DNA of 64,000 bases from Ginglymostoma cirratum. Lineage: Eukaryota. Below are positions 2,352 through 34,230 of the stretch, in pieces; position 1 is the stretch's first letter; each line of letters begins with the position of its first letter. Where the stretch lies: positions 25,807,014-25,871,013 of the forward strand of contig JAHRHZ010000062.1 of NCBI GenBank assembly GCA_024137785.1, written 5' to 3'. A model generated the notes under the pieces. That model ran no database searches. It had not been told where the DNA came from and saw only the letters and a list, made by a program, of their open reading frames with translations. The translations under genes and the position numbers were made by a program.

Positions 2352-2432
2352 CGTTCTGTTTTGATTGATGCTGTGCACCTTCTTCGGAATTCGTAGCAGA
2401 ATTTTGTTGCGTTTCAGTTGCTGCCAGTAGTT
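2352..2432 (-). other. 81-nt phase 1-1 exon-like unit, splice sites intact (ELLAATETQQNSATNSEEGAQHQSKQN)
   Basis: TATAG acceptor, GTGCGT donor, open frame; homologous to four other copies. Confidence 0.55.
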
Positions 2433-3349: not shown

Positions 3350-3430
3350 CTTGCTTGTTCGGATCATCCTCCTCAGCTTGCTTTGTATTCATGGCATTAC
3401 TTTGTGTATTCTCAGTGTCATCCACGGAAC
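3350..3430 (-). pseudogene. 81-nt exon-like unit, donor lost (GSVDDTENTQSNAMNTKQAEEDDPNKQ)
   Basis: GTAG acceptor and open frame, but the donor position reads TTGAGA. Confidence 0.5.
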
Positions 3431-5978
3431 CTACATCCTCACAAAAGTACAAGGTGGACAGCATAAGCCCAGTTACATAAGGAAGTAGAAACTGCAGCGT
3501 TAATGCTTTTGTGTGATCATAAATTCCACACATGTTCATTTGAGCTCAGGCCAACAATATCTATGGACCAGTGAGACTTATTTTCAGATGGGTGCTGCAT
3601 TAATGTTCTCTCAGTTATTGCAGAGCTGCTGGTCACTGTGTGTATCACGTCCCATTCTTCTTTGGACACCATGCATTTACCTGTGGCAACTATTCTTTGA
3701 ACAATTCTGTAACTTGGTGATGCAAATGGTCCTGGCATGCATTTGTAAAGTATCTTGAAGTGGTCAAATCATTGTACAAACCATGTACTTGGGTGTAAAG
3801 ATTGATGAGTGGAATTCTCAGGCAAAAATGAAAGCAGTTTTTGAATTTGAGAAAGAAGTAATTTTACCTTGCTCAAATGATTTCAACTGTGAAACTGCAT
3901 CTGTTTAATCATGATGTTCTGGCATTTCCAATGTTGGATTTGCTCAAGGACTGTGATGAGACGTCAACACACAACCATTCGAAAACAGACAGAATGTGCT
4001 GATGATGGTCATAAGATGTGCACCAGTAGTGCAAAGGACCAAAAGGGGAGATGCCTCCTGAAGTGTGTTTCGCTTTGAATATTCTGGAGAATAGGGAGGT
4101 CATCCACCAGCTCCAACGTGGTAAGTAAACCTGCCTTGGTGCAACGTAGGAACCAGTATTGCTGATGGCTAACGCTGTCATTTTGCAAGGAGACCAACCT
4201 GTTCCCAATTGACTCCCATCATGAGTGGCATGAAGAAGGCTTTTGCAATAGGAATTTAACCGTGTTTCACGGAGGAATTGTACATAATTCCAATTGAGTC
4301 CATTGATCTTAAATGGCACTGCTTTCTGTACCAAATTCATTGATCTTTTAAAGTTAACCACAGCTCTGGGAAATCTCTGTACTTTGACCGATTATGACGA
4401 ATCATAAAATATTAATGCACAGTTTAAAAACTTCCAGTGTTTAATCACATCATAAACATCAAAAGCACTGCAGGTGCTGCAAAGCAGAAACAAGAACAGA
4501 AGATGCTCAAAAGGGCCACCAGACCGAAAACGTTAACTCTGATTTCACTTCACCAATGCTACCACACCTGCTGAGCTTCTCCAGCAATTTCTCTTTTTAT
4601 TTAAGGACTTAATGTTGTGTGTGCAAGTTCTATTCAGTGAGTGATTCAGAAGGTAATGGCACAAGGTTTTATTTGAGGACTGATTGTTGGGAATGAAATG
4701 ATGGGGATGTGGTGAATGAGCTAAATGGTGTAGTTGGCGTGGAAGCTCTCTCTGCATGAACTCAGTCACAAGGACAAATTGAGTGAGATTGTTGAAGTTC
4801 TTCCTTACCAGCGTTCATGGTCTTGGAACAACATTCTGAAATTCACCTGCTCTCTTTCTATTCGCTTCTAAACACCTGTGTGAATACCACTTGCTCCCCT
4901 CAGAACACAGCATATTGCTCCTGTTTTAATTTCACCACCTGGATCTCTAATTCTGCACCTCGTGAAAAGCTTAGTGCATTCTATGTCACACATGTTAACC
5001 ATTGGTCGAAATGCCCAAGCACCAGTTTATTTCAGGAATGTGTGTGTGTGTACCCTATTTTGCAGTAACAATGTAAGTCAACTTAGGAGCTGGAGATTGT
5101 CTTTAAGTAACTTGTGCTACTCTCAATATAAGGACCTACTCCTGCAAGAAGCAAATGTACAAGTTGGATGTCGTTAAAGCTCACTGAAGTCAAATAATGT
5201 AGCAGGTACCGAAAATGCATAATGCGCCATTAAATACATACTGTCATCTTAATTTACCTTAGTTTAAAAGGCCTTTGTCAAATTCCATTGTCAAAGTTTT
5301 GCATTAGTTCTGGGCTTTGCCCAAATAATTACTTTTAATTATTGCACCAAAGCTGGTTAGTTACTGAATTGTACCTGTGGGGGACCTCCCTATTCTCTGG
5401 AATATTCAACCATAAACATTCTTCAGAAAGCATTACCCCTTTTTGTCCTTTGCACTATTGGTGCAATTCTTGTGTCCCTCATTCAGCACATTCTCACTAT
5501 GTCAGATTGTTGTGTCTTGAATGTCCCATCCCAGTTATTGAGCAAACTCCATCTTGGAAACTCCAGAACATCATTATTGGAAAGATACATTTTCATAGTT
5601 GACATCATTTGGGTAAGTTATAATTCCTGGTAACTCAAATTCAAGAACTGATGTCATTTTCATTTGAAAACTCCACTGAGCTATATTGCAGAAAAATATT
5701 TGATTTGTTCAATGATTTGATTACTTTGAGACATTTTGCAACTGCAATGCAGGACCATTTGAATCACCAAGTTATAGAATTCTTCAAAAAATAGTTACAT
5801 CGTATTGACTGAGGTAAAAGAAGAATGGGATGTAATATGCATTCAGCTCTGCAAAGTTAGATAGAATATTAACGCAGCACTAATCTGAAAACTGGTGTAA
5901 TTTGTCTTGAGGTAAATTTGTAAAGATCTCATGTTACTGGGTTTACACTGAATATCTTGTATCTTTATGATGATGTAG

Positions 5979-6059
5979 AATCACAAGAGGTCCCTGAAAT
6001 TCAACAAAGTCATGCTTGGGATACAGAACAAGATACAGAGAATCAATCAATAGAGAAAC
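5979..6059 (+). other. 81-nt exon-like unit, splice sites intact, inside the inverted block (ESQEVPEIQQSHAWDTEQDTENQSIEK)
   Basis: GATGTAG acceptor, perfect GTAAGT donor, open frame. Confidence 0.55.
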
Positions 6060-7459
6060 GTAAGTTGCTATGATTTAAAAGTGTGGCCAATTAAGAAGAA
6101 ATCGTCTGGGTGCATTACCTGATCTAATGCAATACTCTCACACTGGAATTGGGTCATTGCCTGGTAAATTGGTACAGGTCTGACAGTATGTGTTTAATCC
6201 TTGTCTTTGGATCACAGGCTGTGCTGTACCATTTGCTACCTGCTGACTTACTTGATTTCAGGATGCTGCCAATGATATCCATGTTGTTCACTGGATGCAT
6301 GCATTAGCAGAACCTTTTATTGTGAGAGGCTAAAGTTACTTAAAGGCAATCTCCAGCTCTGATAGTAGGAGTTGTTACTGCAAACATTAGTGCACTCGGT
6401 TGCAAAATAAACTTATGCTCTGATACTTTGAACAAAAGTTAAACTGTGTGAGGTAGCATCCACTAAATTTTTCAGGAGGCTCAGAACTAGAGAACTAGGG
6501 TCCGCTATGAAAGAAGAAAGCCCTTGGTCCAGAAATCAGTGCCATTGAAAATGCATGAACTCAATTGGATATATGAATAGATTCTATCTAGCCCATGAAC
6601 GGGCTCTTTAATAGCCAAAGCCATCCTGAAGGCAGTGACAGCATCAGCATTCTGGGCAACCTCAGCCCATCAAGATCACTACGGTCGAATGGGGGAAAGG
6701 TTGGTCTCCTTGTGAAATGGCAGCCTCAGCCATGAGCAACACTGGGTCCAACATTGCACCAAAGTAGGTTTACTTATAATGTTGCAGCTGGGGGATGAGC
6801 TCTCTACTCATCAGAATATTCAAACCCAAAGCATCCTTTGGAAAGCATCTCCTATTTGGTTCGTTTGCACTATTGGTGCGAACCTAATGTCCACCATTCA
6901 GCACTTTCCCAATGTCAGATCGTTCTGTGCTGATCTCCATTCTTAGTTCTAAGGCAAATTCCATCATGGAACCACCAGTGCACATGATTGAAAAGATACA
7001 ATTTTGCAGTTGAAATCATTTGGGGAAAGTAAAATTTCTGTCTTCTCAAATTCAAGACCTGATTGCATTTTTGTCAGAAAACTCCAATGATCAATCCTTA
7101 CAACTAACTGTATGATTTGTACAATGATTTGACCACTTCAAGACATTTCACATTTGCATGCCAGGACCATTTGAATCACTGTGACATATAATTCTTCAAA
7201 GAATAATTGGCTGAGGTAAATGTATGGCATCAATAGAAGCATAGGACATATGACACTGTGAGCAGCAGCTCTGCAGTACCTCAGAGAACATTAACGCAGC
7301 ACTCATAAGAAAATTTGCCTCATTTGTGCATAGATATAGTTGGACTGAGCTCAAATGAACATGTGTGAAATACATGAACACACAAAAGCATGATCACTGC
7401 AGTTTCTACTCGCTTATGTAGCTGAGTTTACACTATCTTGTATTTTTGTGATGATATAG

Positions 7460-7541
7460 AAACACTGATCGTTGCTAAGCATGAACAAAGCATTGCTGCA
7501 GATACAAAAAAAAGACACAGAGGATCACTCAAAAGGGAAAG
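7460..7541 (+). pseudogene. Degenerate exon-like unit (extra A in a homopolymer, no GT donor)
   Basis: TATAG acceptor, 82 nt, donor position reads ATAGAT. Confidence 0.5.
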
Positions 7542-8447
7542 ATAGATGCAATTATTTAAAACTAAGTGCAATTAAAAATAATTATCTGTGTGGAATAGGT
7601 GATCTAATGCAAAACTGTAATGATTGAATCTGTTGAAGCCCTGGAAAATTGGAATGGTGATGACAGTATGATTTAATTCTTGCGTTTGCATGACAGACAC
7701 ACTGCACATTTTTCCTGGCTGCTGTCTCAGCTGTCTTCACTTTTCTGTCAATGAAATGCATTCTGTTAATTGAATTCAAGTATCAGCAGGGCCTTATATT
7801 GCCAGAAGAATAAGTTACCAAAACACAATCTGCATCTCATGCAGTGGCCTCGTATTGTTACTGCACAGACTGGAGAAATCCTTTTGAAAATACAATTCTG
7901 CTCTGACCTGATTAACAACCGTCACATTATTCAAAAAATGCAGGACACAAGTACAGTTCAGAGAATATTTCCCCTTTTGGTCCTTTGCACAATTGCTACA
8001 ACTGTTACGGACATCATTCCTCACTTTTCTCCCTGTGTCAGAGTCAGATTGTTGTGTGATGCACTTGCATTCCAGTGCTTGAGCAAATTTGGTTTAGTAA
8101 CATCCAGAACATCAATGTTGAAAAGATACAATTTCATAGATAACATCACAGTCGGGCAAGATGATGTTTCAGATTTGTCAACATCAAGAACTGATTACAT
8201 TTTAACCTGAGAAATCCATTATTCTGTCCCTTCAGAAAACAACATGGTTTGTACAATGATTTGCCCACTTTCCGATATTGTGCAAGTTCATTCCAGGTCA
8301 TTTGAATCACCAAATTATTGCATTCATTGTACTGATCTGAAATTAACATGCGTGAATGTCATTCTTGCACAAAAGCACTATTAGCGCAGTTTCTACTCTC
8401 TTATATTACTGGGCCTACTCTGCACTTGTATTTTTATTTTGACGTGG

Positions 8448-8528
8448 AATCACCGGTAACAACTGAATCTCATCAAAAAGCTACTACGAATAAAGAAGAA
8501 GATGCAGAGAATCAATCAAAACAGAACG
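8448..8528 (+). pseudogene. 81-nt exon-like unit, acceptor lost (ESPVTTESHQKATTNKEEDAENQSKQN)
   Basis: Acceptor position reads GG; donor GTGCGT is identical to the 2352 copy. Confidence 0.5.
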
Positions 8529-8572
8529 GTGCGTTATCATGATTTAAAAATGTGACCAAGTAATTAAAAGTA

Positions 8573-8805: not shown

Positions 8806-10511
8806 GAAATGGTAGGCTGGCAGATATGTGGATAAGAGATTAGGATAGGTTGAGGGGTTGAGTCGGGCGTTGTGGTATCAAGTTAGAATCATAAAGTCTT
8901 CAAGATCTACAGCACAGGAAAAAAGCCTTTGGCCCATTGAGTATGTGCTGTTCAAAAAGAAAACATCTGACCATTCTAACACCTTTTCAGGCATTTGCCT
9001 ATAGACTTGTTGTTCTTGGCATCACAACAGCATATTTAAATCATTCTTCAATCTGATGAGGGTTTCTGCCTTTTCCACCCTTCTCGGCAGTGAGTTTCAT
9101 ATTCCCACCACCCTCTGAATTAAAAATAAATTTCCTCACATCCCCTCTGGACCTGCTGCTCCTGACCTTAAATCTGTCCCCTGTTCATTGATCCTCCCAG
9201 CAAGGAGTTCTTTACTACCTTAGAACAGGGCATCATATTGGGGCAGATCCAGTTTCAGATCCAGTGGCTGGGGTTGGGGGCTGCTGGTGTTGGAACGCGA
9301 GCTTACTGATTTGTTGCAGACAAGCGTGAGGTCCTGTGGGGTCACATCTGCTGTTCGGGGACATTGGGATTGGAAATTAGATCCTGATCAAGTGTTTCAG
9401 GGCTTGGAAGGGGTAGTTTGTTGTGTCACCCCAGGAAACGGCTGAGGGGTCAGTGGAAATAGAATAGGTTTTGATCCTCAAACTTTTCCGGGGTAGCTAC
9501 TCAGCTCAGTTGAGTCTGATTCCTCCAAAATCATCAACTTTAAATATATTCTGTAGAATGTTCCAGGTGCAGGAGAATTGCCAAATGAAATTTTCAGTTT
9601 CATGGGAAATGTCCTCAGTCAGTTGGTTCAGGATTTCTATACAGTTCTGACTTGAAACCCCAATCTACACTTTCCAAGGATATCTCTCCTTTAGCTCACA
9701 GACAAGATTTCTCAATGACACTGTTAATATTTCCATAAACAGTTGAAATCACAATGTGCAGATTCAATTCCTGAATGGATGAATCATGATTTTTTCACCA
9801 CTTTAAATCATACAGAATTCATTTTATCACATTTATTGCCTCCATCATCTTTTGAACATGATTTTCCTTTCTTAGCAGGGTTTTGAATGTGCAATTACTG
9901 AGGTAATGTATGACTTGCCAGATCTCTGTCTTTTCCTGACAGTCGATTCCTGTCCAGAAATGTCCACAGTGGGAGTCATTTAAGTGTATGTATGTATTTT
10001 ATGAAATGCCCGGAGTTCTAGGCCTGTCTATTAAAGCGTCAATCACAAAGCTGAGCAAATATCTTGACTCAAGTGTGGAATAATTGTGATGCAATGATGC
10101 ATTCCTACGGTTGTCATCACATTTGGAATTTCCTTGAACACTGAAATTTATTGCAAGAAATTCCACATATCCTTCCGCAAAAGTAGAATTATTTGAGCAA
10201 TGATTGAACACCACAAAGGTAATTTTGGAGTAAATTCCATGGTATCTTGAAGAACCAAATATTGAAGAACCACTTCTGCCAATGTATGAAACTTGCTGCT
10301 TCAGGAATATTCAGGCCAGCACAATTAGAAGTCTACCTACAGTTAATGTCAATGGTGGATAACAATTCCGCATTGTCTGTAAGTTCATTAATGCAACATT
10401 TAACTGGAAATAGTAGCACCGATATGCGGACAAAAGTGTATTATGTTCAAACATATGAATATGTGTTCTTCTAATTTAAGCCAAAAGCACGCTCACTGAA
10501 TTACTGCACCT

Positions 10512-10594
10512 TTACAGCATCTGTTTACATGGTTTATTGTCATTTTGTTCATGAAGATTCACTGATAACTTCTCCAAAGGATGGAAGCAAAATT
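10512..10594 (-). CDS. Candidate terminal coding exon (EFCFHPLEKLSVNLHEQNDNKPCKQML*)
   Basis: Good acceptor (TTCAATTCTTACCTCCAG), open in phase 1 to TAA; AATAAA downstream on the minus strand at 10147-10152. No homology support. Confidence 0.4.
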
Positions 10595-10639: not shown

Positions 10640-10830
10640 TTAGGGGAAAACCTTATCTGGTTCACTCATGTCTTTTAGGGAAGGAAATCTGCTATCCTCA
10701 TCTGGTCTGGCCTACATGTGACTCCAGACCCACAGCAGTGTAAGTGACTCTCAACTGCTCTCTGGGGAATTAGGAATGGGTAATAAATCCTGGCCTAGTC
10801 AATGATTTCTACATCCCATGAATAAACAAA
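10640..10830 (+). mobile_element. Partial SINE (same family as 59720-60007)
   Basis: GGTTCACTCATGTCTTTTAGGGAAGGAAATCTG...GACTCCAGACCCACAGC...ATGAATAAA shared with the other copies. Confidence 0.8.
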
Positions 10831-11303
10831 ACAATGGTGCTAGCAATAGGGAAGATCATCATTGAAATTAAACCTTCTCTTACGTCAGCAAGTATTGTAT
10901 TCTTTGGGTTAAACAAACAGCAGCTACTTCCAGCTGGGTGAGATGGTAGCGTTGACATGTGTGTGAGGTTATGGGTTCAGGTGGGCGAGGCAGTTGGGTG
11001 CAAGAGTGAGAGTTTGGTGACCAGATAAACAGACAGGTGTTTAAGGTATGTCAAACGTTTAGATCAATATCGGCTGGATTCAGCAGCGGCAATTGGTTTT
11101 TGGACCAGGTGGAGTTGAGTCATGGGGGAGTGTTTGGGAGATAAGATCCAGGCAGTGTTGGGACAGAGGTGGTAACGGTCAGAGTTAGAGGATATTTGGA
11201 TCGTAAACCTTGGATAAATTAAATAGATATCCACAGGTTAGAGTAGATATTAATTATCTTCCTTTCCTTGAGCAACTTTTAACTTGAGTGTGTCCAAACC
11301 TAC

Positions 11304-11399
11304 CCTCAGTTTCTACTCCAATCAGATTTTGTGACTCATCCGAAAGTTCCACTTGATTGTCAATCCCGACTTTACCTTTTGAGAGAGTGTCCTGTGATT
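11304..11399 (-). CDS. NCR3LG1: Cytoplasmic exon B (ESQDTLSKGKVGIDNQVELSDESQNLIGVETE)
   Basis: 96-nt open phase 1-1 exon, GTAG acceptor and GTAGGT donor; same length and phase as exon A, 344 bp away. Confidence 0.65.
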
Positions 11400-11647
11400 C
11401 TACATAAGCACAAAAATACACAAGAAATGTTGTAAACATGTATTATGATGGAAACTATAGCAACAATATCTTTGTCATTGAAAAATGCCTACATATTTAT
11501 TTCAGCTCAATGGTCATAGCTGGGAAGTAGTTAGGTGTTCAGTAGTAAGTCAAGGGGTCAATTGAATAGTTACATACAGGTTAGAGTAGGTTGTTAATTG
11601 GCTAACATTCCTTGAGTAACATTTAACATGAGTGAGTCCAAGCCTAC

Positions 11648-11743
11648 CTTCAGGTTCTGCCCCCATCAGATTTTGACGCTCATCAGAATGTTTCACTTGA
11701 TTGATACTACCGGCTTCAGCCTTTGAGAGGGGGTTCTGTAATT
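11648..11743 (-). CDS. NCR3LG1: Cytoplasmic exon A (ELQNPLSKAEAGSINQVKHSDERQNLMGAEPE)
   Basis: 96-nt open phase 1-1 exon, GTAG acceptor and GTAGGC donor; tandem paralog of exon B. Confidence 0.65.
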
Positions 11744-13718
11744 CTACGTAAGCACAAAAATACACAAGAAATGTTGTATACATACAGTATGTATTTAGTT
11801 GAGCTTAGTGGTCATAGCTGGGAGGTAGTTACATGTTCAGTGGTAAGTCAAGGGGCAAATTAAATAGTTGACCACAGATCAGAATAGGTTGTCTAACTTG
11901 CTCTGAGTAACTTTTAAGCTTAAGTAACAATAAACACTCCTGAAATAACAACTTTAAGGGACTTTTCTGGAGTGGTCACTCTCTTTTAACACACAGTAAA
12001 GATTTCTAAATGACACAGCTATTATTTCCATGAATATCTGAAGTCGTATTTTGCGGTTTCAATGCCTGAGTGACAAACAATGCTTTTATTTCCACTTTAA
12101 ATAGTACAAAAACATTTCATCACATTTGTTGCCTCTACCATCTGTTTCATCCATTAGCATTTTCTTTTCTGAGCACTTCTCTAGCAATGGCTTATTTGTG
12201 CATCCTTTTCTCTGGTACTGCTATCTTATGTGCTGCCTGGGTTTGACACTGCAGTCAAGCAAAGGAAAGATATTTCATTTGTAAAGATTACAGGCTTTTC
12301 TGACTCAAGTCTTCCAAACAAAGCAAGACATCATGGCAACACCCCTGTTCTTAGACATTGGCACTTACTTGGCTATGTTATCATCTGAGTGACGGATCAC
12401 AAGGATGGTTGCATCAGCCCATGCCATGCAAGGACCTGATAATTTACAGACCATATGTTGCCTAATCTGGTCTACTATCTCCAACACAATGGTACAGTTA
12501 GTATCAACTTTCTCCTTTCCTTCTGTTGCAGCATCAGTACTTGACTTGTGGGAACAAACATTTATCTTGTTGGGTCTCAGCAAAGCATAAAAGATGATTT
12601 TTTTTACATCACACGTATCAGAAAACTGATTGACATTTTAATCATATTATTGAAATCACTCAATAATGTATAGAGTTTTGGTGAAGTCATTTTATCTATG
12701 AATATTACCTTCTTGTTAATTATTAACACAAAAATAAATTAGGAAGAAAGAAAGACTTGCATTTTTATAACAACCTCAGTATGTCTAAAGATGCTTTAAA
12801 GGCAATGAAGTATTTTCAAAGTGTGATCTTATTAGCAATGTTGGAAGTATGGCATTTAGCTTCATTACAACAAGCTTCCACAAACATTAACACAATATCC
12901 ATCTGCAAAGTTGGTTAAGCAATAATCATTGTCCATAGCATCAGGGGAAATTCTGCATTTACAATCCCCTACCCTGACACAAGTACCCTCCTAATATGAC
13001 CCAACTGCCTCCAACCAGCCAACTGCATCCCTAACACACCCCCACCTGTTCGACAATTCCTCCAATGTGGCCCAACCCTGACTCATTCACAACCTGAGTA
13101 CCCATTCACCAACCTAACCACTTACCCACACAACCAACCTCATGCAACTAACCATCCACTTACGCAATCACTCACTCACCCAGTCAACCAATTACCCACC
13201 CATCTATTCACTCACTCATTTAATAATGTTAAAAGACTGGACCTATAAAGTTGCCATGTGATAATTGGTGTATAAACAGGGCCTGTCCTGTGCTCTCCCT
13301 ATTCCATTCTGACAGTTACCCAAGGAACGCTGTGCAATTCAGTGAATGTCAGGATTGTAACATCCCAAAAGCAATGTGCAGCAGCATTAAGTTGGGGAGT
13401 TTCCGAGTATAGCAGTAATCCACTCATCATTGTTAGTGCTCAGAGATTCAGGCCTGTGATTCAAACATAGATCACATTGCTTCATCATCATTGTCTCCAA
13501 ATTCTAGAGCACCCTAGCCAGGAGCAATGTGGGAATACCTTCATCATGCAGAGCACAGAGAGTCAACCTGAAAGCCCATCAGCACATTTTCAGGGGCAAC
13601 AAGGGGTGGATTGTAAATGATGGCCTTGCTAACAACTTCCATTGACCAAAAATGAACAAAAGAAAACAAATTAATAAAATATTGTTTCATTTGTTTGTAA
13701 ATTTACGGATTTTCTTAC

Positions 13719-13817
13719 CTTTTGACCTTTGTCTCCAAAGGTAAATTCCAACAAGTATCATAGGTAATAAAACAGCACAAATTATAGCCAAGCCGAGGGC
13801 TAAGTAATCACGGGATT
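13719..13817 (-). CDS. NCR3LG1: B7-H6/NCR3LG1-like gene, transmembrane exon (ESRDYLALGLAIICAVLLPMILVGIYLWRQRSK)
   Basis: 99-nt phase 1-1 exon, TTTTCAG acceptor and GTAAGA donor. About 23 hydrophobic residues followed by a basic stop-transfer segment. Not in the ORF track; found by hand. Confidence 0.88.
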
Positions 13818-20010: not shown

Positions 20011-20364
20011 CGTTCAGAGTTCTGTTTGTATCGTCCGACTCAACTAGTACCGTGAGTACACATTCCATTGTCAGTCCATTAGGAAATGTTAAATGCTCCA
20101 CGACACATCTGTACCTGTCACCATCATCCTTTACTGTTGGTTTAATGTTCAGTTGACTGGATGTATAAAATGTTTTATCACTATTGATGCCAAAATTCTT
20201 TATGTAACTTAATAATGAAATATTTTCTGTTCTCTGTTTTGATACTTTGATCCAGCTGATCTTCAATGGTTGAGGATAAAATCCAGTCACGATACAGCTC
20301 ACAGACCCCTCTGAACCGTTCAAAATTGTAAGAGATTGTGTGGATAAACTAACATTTGGCTGAG
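20011..20364 (-). CDS. NCR3LG1: B7-H6/NCR3LG1-like gene, IgC1 exon
   Basis: 354-nt phase 1-1 exon (TTTCTTTCCACACAG acceptor, GTGAGT donor). C1-set motifs CIVTGFYPQPLKISW, NSDKTFYTSSQL and YRCVVEH, plus several N-X-S/T sequons. Confidence 0.92.
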
Positions 20365-24321: not shown

Positions 24322-24660
24322 CTGATACTTGGATTTCTGAGGTCCGTTCTGCACTTTCAGGTGTTATGAACACGGTGCAAGTGTAATTTCCTTCATCTGC
24401 AATCTGTACTCGTGGAAGGAAAAGTGAGGCATCTCCCTTCAGTACATTGCTATCATTAATTAATGCTCCTGGTCGCATTGCATCATGTTGATCTCTCGAG
24501 AAAAAATACACATCTGTTTCTCCATTGAGCTTCCATTGAACTCCTACCCTTTTTGGGTCAATGGGACCACCAGTATAGCCTGTTACCTTGCATGTCAGGT
24601 GAATATTTTCATTTAATGATACTATCAGTGGGCTTTGAAATATCTTGAGATCCATTGTGT
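24322..24660 (-). CDS. NCR3LG1: B7-H6/NCR3LG1-like gene, IgV exon
   Basis: 339-nt phase 1-1 exon with a polypyrimidine/AAAG acceptor and GTAAGC donor. V-set motifs LTC...VQW...GDASLFLPRVQIADEGNYTC. DLK, LNEN, VYFF..D...AMRPGA, GDASL.LP and C.V..TP..A match my recollection of human B7-H6 (DLK, LNDN, VFEF.GD...AFRPGA, GDASLRLP, CEVVVTP). Confidence 0.9.
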
Positions 24661-29055: not shown

Positions 29056-29110
29056 CTGATGTTGAAATGAATGATATAATACTGCAAAGAGTCCAAATTT
29101 TCATCTTCAT
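29056..29110 (-). CDS. NCR3LG1: B7-H6/NCR3LG1-like gene, exon 1 (signal peptide MKMKIWTLCSIISFISTS)
   Basis: Manual reverse-strand translation: ATG, basic N-terminus and hydrophobic core, 55 nt ending in phase 1 at G|GTGAAG. It joins the IgV exon in frame (G+AC = Asp, giving ...TS-DTMDLK). Confidence 0.8.
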
Positions 29111-29475: not shown

Positions 29476-32400
29476 TTGGCTGCGATCAGTTGCTGGGGCT
29501 TTTTGCCTCGGCGACGGGGAAATTTGAGTGGGGAGAAACAAAGAAAAAAAATGTGGATGTTTACTGTGTGCAGGATTTCCTCTGCAGTGGATATTTTGAC
29601 GTGACTTTCAAGTGTGTCAAGCAATGTGAGTGCCTCCTGAAGGCTTTCAAGGAGGAAAAGAGGTGAGGGTCCCCTCTCTGTCCTGAATGCCGTGCCACTG
29701 TTTGTGCTGCCTGTGCAGAGGAGCCGGATGGTCACCATCCATATGTACAACCCGCATGTGCCAGCAGCAGATGTTCTGACATTCCTGTGAAGGTAATGTG
29801 AAAGTGGAGAGCGGCAGCAGTGCTGTGACGGACCCCTTAGGGATCTGAACCAGCCATTGGCACGTCAAGGTAACCCTGAGGGCAGGTGTGGATCGGAACA
29901 TCCTCCACCCACCGTCCAGCTTTGCGATTGGTGGGAGCTAAGACTACCTGATGTAGATGGGGCATCCCAAGGTGTGTCATATCTGCCGGAGGGCAGGGCA
30001 TGTGGCGGCAGACTGTAAGGTGACCCTGTGCAGGAACTGTATGGAGGAGGGACACCTGACAAAGAACTGTCAAAAGACAAAGGAGTGTAACATTTGTGGA
30101 GAAGCGGGCCACCTCTATAAGACGTGCCCACGATGGGGGGGCCACATATGCTCAGATGGCAAGCAGGGGCAATGTGTGGGCCAAACCGGCCCAAAGGACA
30201 GTAAGGTGCCACCCTCCAGCAGGGAAATTGAACAGGCGGACATACAGAAGGAGAGACAAGTTGCAGAACAGAGACATGAAGCCAGCGCAGCGGCACAACA
30301 GACCCATCACCCTCCTGAGAATCCAGAGTCAATGGAGGAGGAGATGAAGAAGAAGTCGGGGGAGTGGAAAACGGTGAAGAGAAACTGGAAAAGAAAACCT
30401 CGCCTGGCCCCCCCACACCATAACAACAGAACAGGAAGGGCCAGCTACAGGATGGCCACAGAAGCTTCTCCGATGAAGAGGACTCACAGATGGAGGGCCA
30501 TCAACAAAAAAGAAGGATCATGGCTTCCAGGGAGAAGGAGAGGAGCACTACCCTGCTCGAAAACAGTGGATATCAGGAGCCCCCTGGCAAAACTCAGCCC
30601 TCCACTGCAAGGCACATGGGGGGTCCCTCCATATCACAGATCCAGGCAACCAGATGCAGCGACGCTTCGAGCAAGGAGCAGGGGATGACAGCACCCCCAG
30701 TTGGACTCAGAACTGGACATTCCCAGCTTCGTCCTCACCCCGATAATGCCAGACAGGGGAAATGGCCTGAATGATGACCTGGACAGCTGCCTCAGCCCTG
30801 TGAGGATCCAACTATTTGCCCACACAACGGGGATGCAGGGACTGCCGCAATGATCAGATCTCGGGAAAAAGCACTTTGTGCTCTAACCATTGTATCAACC
30901 TAAAATGGATTTAAACACTGTAAGAGTTAATGTGCATAGCATTAAATCTACCACGTGATGCGTCTCCACATTGGCTTACCTGGCCAACATCAAAGCCGAC
31001 CTCCTGTTTCTCCAGGAGTGCGGGATCCTACACCTCAGCAGCTACAGGAAATGGTTGAGCTTGTCAGCCCATGGGTCTTCGTTTTGCTCGGGGGGCAATA
31101 ATTGTCATTCCTCTGGCTTGGGTATTCTGCTGCGAGGAAGCAACTTCACCATCTCCGAGGTTAAGGAGGTGGTTGGTGGGCACCTCCTCCTGGCAGACAT
31201 TATGAACAGGAATAGTCCCCTGAGACTAATTAATGTGTACGCCCCAGTGATAAAGAGTGAGTGGTTGGCCGTCCTACAGTAGCTCCCACTGCTGCTGGCT
31301 AAGTCCAGGCTGGCTGGTCATTCTGACCGGAGACTTCAACTGCATCATCAATGGGGATGTTCGATCTGGAGTAGGGGGAGGGGTGCGATAGTAAACTGGA
31401 CGCCACATCCAGATTCCTGACGGAAACGGTAAAAGACACCAAGCTGCACGACATCTTCATTAGCCCTGCAGATGGAGCACGGCGCAGATACACCTGGTGG
31501 TGACCAGATGGGTCTATCCGCTCAAGGGTAGATTTCCAGTTTGCGTTCTCGGTCAGATCCATTGACATCAAGCCAGTGTTCTTCTCTGACAACTGCCTCC
31601 TGCTGGCCAGCTGTCACGTACAAGGGCAGGGAAGGAAATGTGGAAGCTAAATATGAAACTGTTGACCCCAGAAAACATTGAGGAGCTCAAAGGGGATTAC
31701 ACAGGTTGGAGAACCATGAAACCACTCTTTGAGTCTCCGGGGGACTGGTGAGAAACGGTCAAAGGGAACTTCAAGAATTTCTTCATCCTCAAAGGTGTTC
31801 AAAAGGTGAGAGACAGGCAGGGAAAACTGTCACAACTCCAGAAAAGGATGCAGAACCTGCTCCTATTGCAGACGATGGGAGTCGATGTTACGGAGGATCT
31901 CCCATTGCCTCGGAGGCCTCCAAGACAATGTTCTGGTCCAGGGTCTGCCCTGTGGAGCAGGATGAGACATGCTCACGTTTCCTCTTCTGGAACGTGCACA
32001 AGGAGAGCTCTGTGCTCATGAGCCTGAAGGAAGAAGATGGCTCGGTAACATCTTCTCAGTCTAGATCCTGAGGATCAGCAAATCCTTTTATATCAGACTG
32101 TATGACATGAAGCCCATAGACAGCATGGCCTCCCAGTCATTCCTGTCATCTATCATGTAGGTCTTAGATGTTAGTACTCAGGAGAGGCTGGACCAGTCGC
32201 TATCTCTGGATGAGCTGACCAAGGCCCTCGAGTCCTTAGAAAGGAATAAAACTCCTGGGAGTGATGGCTTACCGGCCGTGTTACATTACGCTCTGTGAAA
32301 CTTGATTGGCCAGAACCTGCTGGAGGTGTATGACAGTATGCTTTAGGCAGGTACTTTGTGTGAATCCATGAGGAAAGGCATCATCACCCTCATCCACAAG

Positions 32401-34230
32401 CAGAAGGGGGAGAGGGAGGAAATTAGAAATTGGTGACCTATTTCACTGTTGAATGTAAATTACTAAATCCTGTCCAAGGTCATCGCCAACTGGATCAGGT
32501 CTGCTCTGGGATCGGTGAATTACCCTGACCAAACCTGTGCCTTACCGGGCAAGAAGATCGCTGAGAGCCTCGCGCTCCTCAGGGATACCGTCACCGACGT
32601 GTAGGACGGGGGGTGGAAACCTGCCTCGTCATCCTGGACCAGGAGAAGGCCTTTGACAGGATATCACACACCTACATGAGAGATGTTCTCTCCAAATTGG
32701 GGTTTGGGGAGGGAATCTGCAATTGGATCCAACTGTTCTACACCAATATTGTTAGTGCAATCTCAATCAATGGGTGGGAATCAGAAAGCCTCCCAATCAG
32801 ATCTGGAGTCAGGCAGGGCTGCCCACTCTCTCCTGCCTGGTTTGTGTGCTGCATAGACCCCTTTGCCGAGTCCATCAGGAAGGATGTGAGCCTGACAGGG
32901 GTGGCTATTCCAGGCAGCGGAGGCCTGCAAGTCAAAGCCTCCCTGTACATGGATGCCGTTTTCGACTCGGATCCGCTGTCATTGAGCAGACTCTTGAGCA
33001 TCTGCGATCAGTTTGAAATGGCCTCGGGTGCCAAGGTTAATAGGGGCAAGAGCAAGGCCATGCTCTTTGGGAATTGGGCCAACAGATCCTTCATTCCCTT
33101 CACCATCAGAACACACTACCGGAAGGTGCTGGGTGTTTGGTTCGGAGGGGCTGGGGTGTGCACCAAAACTTGGGAAGAGCGTGTCACCAAAGTGAGGCAG
33201 AAACTAGGCAGATGGGAGAGGACTGGTCCCTCTCCATTGCAGGAAAAAGTCTGGTCATCAGGTGTGAGGTACTCACAGTGTTGTTGTATGTGGTGCAGGT
33301 CTGGCTCATCCCCCGAACCTGCACCATTGCAGTCACCTGGGCCATCTTCCATTTCATTTAGAATCGAAGAAGGATTGAGTCCGCAGGGACATTATGTCTA
33401 AAGAACTGGACAAATAGGGGAGAAACATACCTAATGCTCCCTCACCCTGATGGCCACCTTTGTGTGTGGTTGCATCAAGCTGTGCGTAGACCCTTGGCGT
33501 GCAAACACCAAGTGTCACTACTTACTGAGGTTCTACATGTTACGAAGGATTGGTCTGGCCTCATTGCCACAGAATGCTCCAAGTAGTTGGACTGTCCCGT
33601 ATCACCTGTCATTCATGGAGAAATTTGCAAAGAAAAATACCTTTGACCACAAGTCAATCAGGCAGTGGTCAGCACATAGTGTCCTTAAGACCCCTCAGGA
33701 AATGGATGGGGTGGATTGTATTGAGTGGTTCCTTGTGCAGACTGTCAAAGTCATTTGGCAGAACACCTCATCACCAATGCTTTCAAACAAGCACCAGGAC
33801 ATCGCTTGGCTAGTGATGAGAAGGGCTGTGCCCGTGCGATCCTTCACACATGCTCGGACTCTCTGCACCACCACACACTGCCCTCGAAGTGGCTGCGGAG
33901 GGTTCGAGACTGTCAAACACCTCCTTCTGGGATGCGCCTATCCAACAGAGGTCTGGAGGGAAATGCAATGATTTTTGTTGTGGGTCATCCCAAACAGCTC
34001 CGTGTCATGGGACTCTGAGCTCGACGGTCCGTTTCCCAGGACACACACCAAGACCAACATCACCTGTGGCTAGAGGACCATCAATGTGGTGAAAGACATG
34101 CTTTGATCTTCGCAAAGCCTGCTGGTGTTCCACTTGAAAGAGTTGACACCAACTGAGTGTTGCAGATTGGTACATTGCAAGGTCCAGGACTCCATGCTGA
34201 GGGACGCAATAAAGCTTAGGGCAGCTGTTA
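29476..34230 (+). mobile_element. Near full-length decayed Tx1/L1-clade non-LTR retrotransposon (Keno-like)
   Basis: ORF1: ZCCHC3-like segments (YCVQDF..FDVTF, VTIHMYNPHVP) and three CCHC knuckles. ORF2 from about 30905: APE (LFLQE, LINVYAP, GDFN), RT (LDQEKAFDRISH, SGVRQGCPLS, LYMD) and a C-terminal C-x-C/ET..HLL..C zinc motif. Many stops and frameshifts; 3' UTR missing. Confidence 0.92.

Follow-up and report, generated by a model that had tools for sequence, protein, structure and literature searches.

In a 64,000-nucleotide stretch of the nurse shark genome (Ginglymostoma cirratum; below, the window), two short exons, A and B, would encode part of the cytoplasmic tail of a B7-H6-like protein, and each carries a candidate acidic dileucine motif. 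The question raised by this locus is whether these exons are used and, if so, whether their motifs act as sorting signals that limit the display of a putative NKp30 ligand. NK-activating ligands must be scarce on healthy cells. Our reading, to which we give a probability of about 0.65, is that A and B are spliced, in-frame copies of a tail exon whose motifs likely bind the sigma pocket of the AP-2, AP-1 or AP-3 adaptors and likely keep the protein scarce at the surface.

A B7-H6-like gene on the minus strand

The gene lies on the minus strand of the window and consists of a leader, a V-type and a C1-type immunoglobulin (Ig) exon, a transmembrane (TM) exon and short tail exons. The coding part of the leader exon (29056..29110) was located by tblastn with the leader of the basking-shark ortholog (62% identity, E 2e-4), its donor being taken from the sequence. 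Its place ahead of the V exon is a prediction from tblastn and sequence. The V exon (24322..24660) matches Pfam V-set and has boundaries set from the sequence. The C1 exon (20011..20364) matches Pfam C1-set; its 3' end is seen as a loose end on contigs of the TM exon, and its acceptor was read from the sequence. The TM exon (13719..13817, 99 nt) was found by tblastn with the bamboo-shark ortholog. It is followed by exon A (11648..11743) and its tandem copy, exon B (11304..11399). Both are 96 nt long and phase 1-1, with AG acceptors and GT donors. By eye, the translations of 29957-33968 and of many shorter ORFs look like degraded pieces of LINE-type reverse transcriptase and zinc-knuckle-like ORFs, which fill the introns and the upstream region.

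The gene, suggested from the letters alone to encode a putative NKp30 ligand, is B7-H6-like. It encodes a leader, V and C1 domains and a single TM segment, and a PDB search with the V exon returned human B7-H6 as the best match (E 1.7e-13), with CD276 next at 2.4e-12. For the two-domain basking-shark ortholog, which is named NCR3LG1-like, the B7-H6 match reached 4.9e-29 as against 1.7e-15, a gap of 13 orders of magnitude. The C1 exon alone found Ig constant domains first, and no B7-H6 occurred among the best 60 of its 244 matches. In a FastTree analysis of 94 ectodomains the gene was sister to its Chiloscyllium ortholog (support 100), inside a clade with Cetorhinus, Scyliorhinus and Mustelus (99). 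Three further V-exon matches were located on the same contig. At least three paralogs, this gene included, stand in tandem. The cytoplasmic tail of human B7-H6 is retrovirus-derived and is not known to be related to the shark tail.

Human B7-H6 (NCR3LG1; PDB 3pv6, 4zso, 6yjp) shares with the shark gene the leader, V, C1 and one TM segment, as well as the FG-loop Thr-Pro (Thr127, Pro128), which makes up 44% of the NKp30 contacts according to the available part of PMC3135353. It differs in that its Lys130 forms a salt bridge, whereas the shark gene has Ser at the equivalent position and belongs to a tandem paralog cluster. By homology, this paralog may serve as an NKp30 ligand.

Exons A and B are spliced into the tail

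The run search listed 13 runs, seven of which contain the V exon, none of these seven being recorded as RNA. Seven of the 13 runs, from four studies, were compared; six consist of contigs, from which rare forms have been dropped, and X10 consists of raw reads at about 2-fold depth. X10 has too few exon reads for joints, and contigs are lacking over both TM and A in X6 and over B in X5; these gaps carry no evidence either way.

Within these data the exons are used, as the first-pass annotation had predicted. The joint from TM to exon A (13719>11743) was found with GT..AG ends in five of the seven runs (X1, X2, X4, X5 and X7; three studies) and that from A to B (11648>11399), again with GT..AG ends, in four (X1, X2, X4 and X7; three studies). 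Upstream, contigs of the TM exon carry the end of the C1 exon as a loose end. Downstream, exon B continues at 11304 into letters identical to 2432-2403 in X4 (depth 44.6) and X6 (5.1), both from one study. This loose end maps exactly to the start of exon C (2352..2432, 81 nt, polar and acidic), the only candidate in the splice-site scan. A 59-base contig of X7 at 13749 has the middle of the TM exon joined to the C1 end, out of order and off the splice sites, and is probably a library artefact.

The motifs lie on the minus strand exactly where they had been placed: motif 1, SDERQNLM, starts at 11687 in exon A (11664..11687) and motif 2, SDESQNLI, at 11343 in exon B (11320..11343). ESQNLI fits the canonical [DE]xxxL[LI] and ERQNLM its LM variant, with an acid at -4 and Leu at 0 in both. 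The element SDE-R/S-QNL-M/I, described as common to the two exons, is present in the genome sequence, but in all covering reads and contigs (4/4 runs) a T>G difference at 11672 turns the Asn of motif 1 into His, and the expressed motif reads ERQHLM. The site is a wildcard position of the consensus. The Asn of the assembly at 11672 is either a rare allele or an assembly error.

Translation across the junction of B and C yields a third motif, ETEELL, composed of the last residues of B and the start of exon C. In the protein predicted from the in-frame C1>TM>A>B>C contig joints the first Leu of motifs 1, 2 and 3 is tail residue 31, 63 and 71, respectively. No tyrosine follows the TM segment in the reference tail through exon C, as had been claimed; however, a read-through haplotype (see below) has one, which lies outside any YxxPhi context. 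A candidate terminal exon near 9550, with Tyr-Ile as its last residues, was dropped, there being no joint and no coverage.

Exon C resembles the 27-residue repeat exons of bamboo sharks, although the likeness is weak. An exon-C-like unit at 3350..3430 on the gene's own (minus) strand, which has TT instead of a GT donor, is skipped in the B>C contigs, and an inverted block with three exon-C-like units on the opposite strand (5341..8564, plus strand) is located inside the B-C intron. The array of tail exons, long in bamboo sharks, seems to have become shorter in this gene. Among 20 neighbouring genome stretches examined for exons after C, 11 are all N and one is mostly N; a loose end of X4 runs 12 bases beyond the exon.

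Tail variants and the exon B donor

It had further been proposed that surface display is tuned by including 0, 1 or 2 motif exons. The data do not support this: forms joining TM to B, TM to C or A to C were absent from the seven runs, in mainly contig data from which rare forms drop out. No TM>B joint occurred among the joints listed, and none of the 12 loose ends in one run set was at 13719 or 11648, the 67 loose-end rows of the other set lying outside this view.

The variants that were found arise within or just after exon B. In one X2 contig (depth 4.3, with 24 bases on the short side) an internal donor 24 nt into exon B, after 11376, is joined to 10594. This opens an alternative terminal exon D (10512..10594; covered to 10547, with frame and stop from translation), by which motifs 2 and 3 are removed and motif 1 is left. 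A SINE-like repeat at 10660-10760 attracts most reads. Contigs of X4 (12.8) and X7 (12.8, including the A>B joint) pass the B donor and continue to an in-frame stop at 11254. The extension (11254..11303) adds a short basic C-terminus; motifs 1 and 2 are kept, and motif 3 and exon C are lost.

The read-through contigs of both runs carry 11299 C>T, which is G>A at position +5 of the B donor, together with five linked variants. An intronic contig of X5 also carries the linked variants, those of X1 give no genotype, and the B>C contigs have the reference base at the linked site 11309. Read-through thus tracks the +5 donor allele in both of the runs that cover this base with intronic contigs. From these few contigs, mostly of one study, we infer that the choice at the exon B donor between read-through and splicing to C is allelic, and tail variants probably arise mainly at this donor, following a splice-site allele.

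A and B could nevertheless be regulated cassette exons with which cells tune surface ligand by the number of motif exons. Several observations would suit such a scheme. Both exons being 96 nt and phase 1-1, any skip stays in frame; bamboo-shark models include many isoforms of the downstream repeat exons; in another bamboo-shark paralog (P0176) one of 11 models has two motif copies where nine have three; and the internal donor of exon B does drop motif 2 in one contig. However, neither TM>B joints nor loose ends at 13719 or 11648 appeared within the listed rows, and all seven retrieved isoform models of the bamboo-shark ortholog retain its one motif. A skip of B only would moreover recreate a motif at the A/C junction (EPEELL), and the read-through follows the donor allele. 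We regard regulated inclusion as improbable.

The duplication and what chance would produce

Exons A and B are located in a 344-bp tandem duplication that includes intron flanks. The statement that they differ widely in amino acid sequence was too strong, since the two agree at 17 of 31 residues and 73 of 96 bases. Over 31 codons dN is 0.26 and dS 0.46, with dN/dS 0.57. A search of the genome with DNA of the A/B region gave elsewhere only short intronic matches of 76-78%. A second duplication, of intron sequence around A and B, is found at 9684-9877 and 11979-12175, with a spacing of 2.3 kb and about 74% identity.

Could the motifs be incidental? An acidic low-complexity exon may have matched the consensus by chance, and a recent duplication would then have copied the match, the tail being a spacer without a sorting role. 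Shuffling yielded the motif in 6.7% of exon A and 8.7% of exon B sequences, a single-exon chance of 7-9%. In neutral simulations from a motif-bearing ancestor, run to the divergence of A and B, both copies retained the motif in 25-26% of stop-free runs, and in 15% when Ser was included. Because neutral drift keeps both motifs in about a quarter of cases, their sharing by A and B is in itself weak evidence of selection. The dN/dS over 31 codons also speaks for an incidental match, as does a tail region full of duplicated, inverted and broken units. Taken alone, the A/B pair is within chance; the family-wide signal described below is beyond it.

Positive selection on the exons is not claimed. 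Identity was lower in the exons than in their flanks (73/96 against 70/78; Fisher P 0.027), a difference which weakens with wider flanks (57/67, 43/48, 71/89).

The motif in orthologs

The closest relative is a Chiloscyllium plagiosum protein annotated as 'ribosome-binding protein 1-like' (XP_043561703.1 and isoforms). It is the ectodomain sister, with V and C1 75% identical, and has the same 32-codon motif exon, with polar exons of 27 residues after it. It has one motif exon, as opposed to two in the nurse shark, with a single copy (SDELQNLL) before a long array of repeat exons; its database name derives from these repeats and not from function. In C. punctatum (GCC19277.1) the motif, again in one exon copy, reads SDEHQALI. 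The B7-H6-like genes of C. plagiosum (P0001-P0008, P0044, P0169-P0177) owe their database names to the repeat tails ('ribosome-binding protein 1-like', 'retinitis pigmentosa 1-like 1', 'myb-like', 'midasin-like') and would escape a keyword search.

A, B and the two bamboo-shark copies all have Glu at -4 and Leu at 0 (4/4), and position +1 varies (M, I, L, I). The bamboo-shark motif exons match A or B at only 12-15 of 31 residues, and retention of the motif at this distance speaks against an incidental match. The four copies agree in nine of 31 columns; SDE-Q-L accounts for five of these, but the clustering around the motif is not significant (P 0.16).

Conservation among chondrichthyan orthologs, which had been proposed as a check, thus holds in bamboo sharks but not throughout, as Mustelus (EKQSFL) and Scyliorhinus (ESQSFL) have Phe at the first Leu position and keep Gln at -2. 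In CD3-gamma a Phe at this position was not tolerated and abolished uptake (PMC2138198, as far as available), and the substitution therefore counts against a strictly conserved signal and in favour of incidental motifs. In horn shark, zebra shark and manta paralogs a Leu pair with an acid at -5 is found. An acidic patch with a hydrophobic pair occurs in the first tail segment of eight other elasmobranch or chimaera proteins, a hand-picked set, which again argues against mere coincidence. In Heterodontus (P0032, XP_067902348.1) a juxtamembrane DSDRSLL and an intracellular Ig-like domain are repeated together, and the motif is present eight times in each of five isoform models.

The conserved element might also be a site of a different kind, namely a binding or phosphorylation site (SDE-x-Q, for an acidic kinase or a scaffold), with the Leu pair serving another partner. 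In the four copies Leu is no more invariant than S, D, E and Q, and Gln at -2 extends to Mustelus and Scyliorhinus. Across the family, however, it is D/E at -4 and Pro at -1 that are enriched and not S/T at -5 or -6 (7 and 4 of 48 sites), and we consider this explanation very improbable.

Family-wide enrichment and a motif in intracellular Ig domains

For the family-wide comparison the best 150 representatives were taken, of which 136 aligned over V and C1, 97 had a TM segment and 84 a tail of at least 100 residues; the rest were dropped. Among the 84 tails, 44 have [DE]xxxL[LIM] within their first 110 residues, compared with 14.0 ± 3.5 in shuffled tails (maximum 24 in 500), and 37 have the strict LL/LI form, compared with 12.2; these rows share ancestry and the counts are non-independent trials. 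A basic control motif occurred in eight of 84 tails, and deeper tail windows had the acidic motif in 17 of 73 and six of 59. Reversed, -3 and -5 spacings were found in 29, 26 and 22 of 84 tails, above shuffle means of about 14, and some of the signal therefore reflects acidity in general in the neighbourhood of Leu pairs. Position-specific enrichment speaks against incidental motifs: D/E occupied -4 in 48 of 124 LL/LI/LM sites, as against 27.2 ± 4.4 in local shuffles, a value reached by none of 5000. Pro was at -1 in 10 of the 48 acidic sites (background 6%). The motif is absent from 40 of the 84 tails. Weighing both sides, we think that incidental motifs are an unlikely explanation, though a good deal less so than a site for another partner.

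Among the named members are chimaera, skate, sharks, coelacanth, wrasse, newt, frogs, lizard and turtle. Amphibian B7H6 proteins are reported to have intracellular Ig domains. Relatives with such domains (basking shark XP_078405420.1, coelacanth, frogs, newt, lizard, turtle, wrasse and two neighbouring paralogs in the nurse shark) have the same ectodomain and a cytosolic acidic dileucine motif, but their motif is in the variable loop of the first intracellular Ig-like domain, whereas the RNA-supported tail of the nurse-shark gene has no such domain. The neighbouring paralogs carry DEGRLL and EQQKLI in this loop (L027:5921-6358 and L031:771-1196). In 28 of 48 anchored tails the motif follows an Ig-like anchor, in a loop of 20-50 residues; a loop count of 28/56 is biased, the rows having been chosen after the tails were viewed, and the unpicked count is the 44/84 given above.

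In an AlphaFold model of a basking-shark paralog the intracellular Ig-like domains have a mean pLDDT of 91. Residues 320-333 of the loop before the motif (331-336) are under 50, and the second Leu of the motif is in a short strand or bridge. In this paralog the Leu pair of the loop could, from the model, be structural. Foldseek with the same model matched the ectodomain to B7-H6 and otherwise returned generic Ig proteins. Scyliorhinus, Mustelus, zebra shark and P0078 have the juxtamembrane segment and no loop motif. The distribution of sequences suggests that the signal may have moved between Ig loop and juxtamembrane segment.

Proposed mechanism and significance

A sorting signal is likely to control surface display, because the exons are spliced in, the gene is B7-H6-like, and the motif is retained in bamboo sharks and enriched across the family. 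The acidic dileucine signal expressed by this paralog is probably functional, to judge by its sequence. The predicted motifs would bind the sigma-subunit pocket of AP-2, AP-1 or AP-3, and acidic dileucine motifs do bind mainly the sigma subunit of AP complexes (PMC2882754, PMC2173715, in the available parts). By analogy with known motifs, binding would lead to constitutive removal from the surface to endosomes or lysosomes. Motif 2, and perhaps motif 3, may be stronger than the LM motif 1. The duplication of A and B would then add redundancy or avidity and not a switch. In this subgroup the location of the motif on a separate juxtamembrane exon might have left the rest of the tail free to be replaced by acidic repeats.

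A wider account can be offered tentatively, and we hold it to be considerably less probable than the reading for exons A and B. It would see an ancient, family-wide dileucine brake on B7-H6-like NK ligands of non-mammalian vertebrates, which in one lineage of sharks and rays passed from an Ig loop to an exon of its own, persisted when the rest of the tail was replaced, and in this species is dosed at three, two or one motif by duplication and a segregating donor allele. If true, individuals would differ in the amount of ligand displayed on their cells. A signal kept from chimaeras to reptiles would also give a testable post-translational account of how B7-H6-like proteins are held back, and would illustrate well how a short motif can survive while the cytoplasmic tail around it is replaced wholesale. 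Such restraint fits the lysosomal route by which human B7-H6 can be removed by cytomegalovirus US18/US20 (PMC5561058, in the part available). The motif class and the mechanism are textbook; the gain lies in comparative immunology and not in a new kind of system. A literature search returned no paper on dileucine signals in the tails of B7-H6; these tails may already be described by Flajnik 2012 or by Ohta and Flajnik 2015, both of which were outside its reach.

Comparison with known dileucine signals

The closest known signals are those of CD3-gamma, LIMP-II and HIV/SIV Nef (PMC2138198, PMC2173715, PMC2882754; here and below, as covered by the available parts of these papers). They share with the shark tail an acid at -4, Leu at 0 and Leu, Ile or Met at +1 on the cytosolic side of a type I protein, as well as extra acids at -5 and downstream. 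ERQ(N/H)LM, ESQNLI and ETEELL all have the acid at -4 and Leu at 0; motifs 2 and 3 have Leu or Ile at +1, and motif 1 has methionine. LM pairs are known from Nef variants, and Met at +1 functions in CD3-gamma with lower efficiency (PMC2138198). A CD8 reporter is taken up with no more than EAAALL; uptake is aided by acids at -5 or downstream, and an acid at -5 works nearly as well in reporters (PMC2882754). About 15% of human type I tails match the motif (PMC2882754), a point against our reading. The shark tail is polar and low in complexity by inspection, and the loop before the motif in the paralog model is, as noted, of low pLDDT.

The analogy drawn earlier with the regulatory serine of CD3-gamma proved weak. 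In CD3-gamma the Ser is at -5, whereas A, B and both bamboo-shark copies have Asp at -5 and Ser at -6, and S126 is dispensable in monomeric chimeras (PMC2138198). In monomeric proteins the motif acts constitutively: surface levels are low and the protein is turned over in lysosomes, with no need of the serine (PMC2138198). The shark gene also lacks a Pro at -1. It differs from the known signals in number and origin as well: it has three motifs, two of them produced by exon duplication and one formed at a splice junction.
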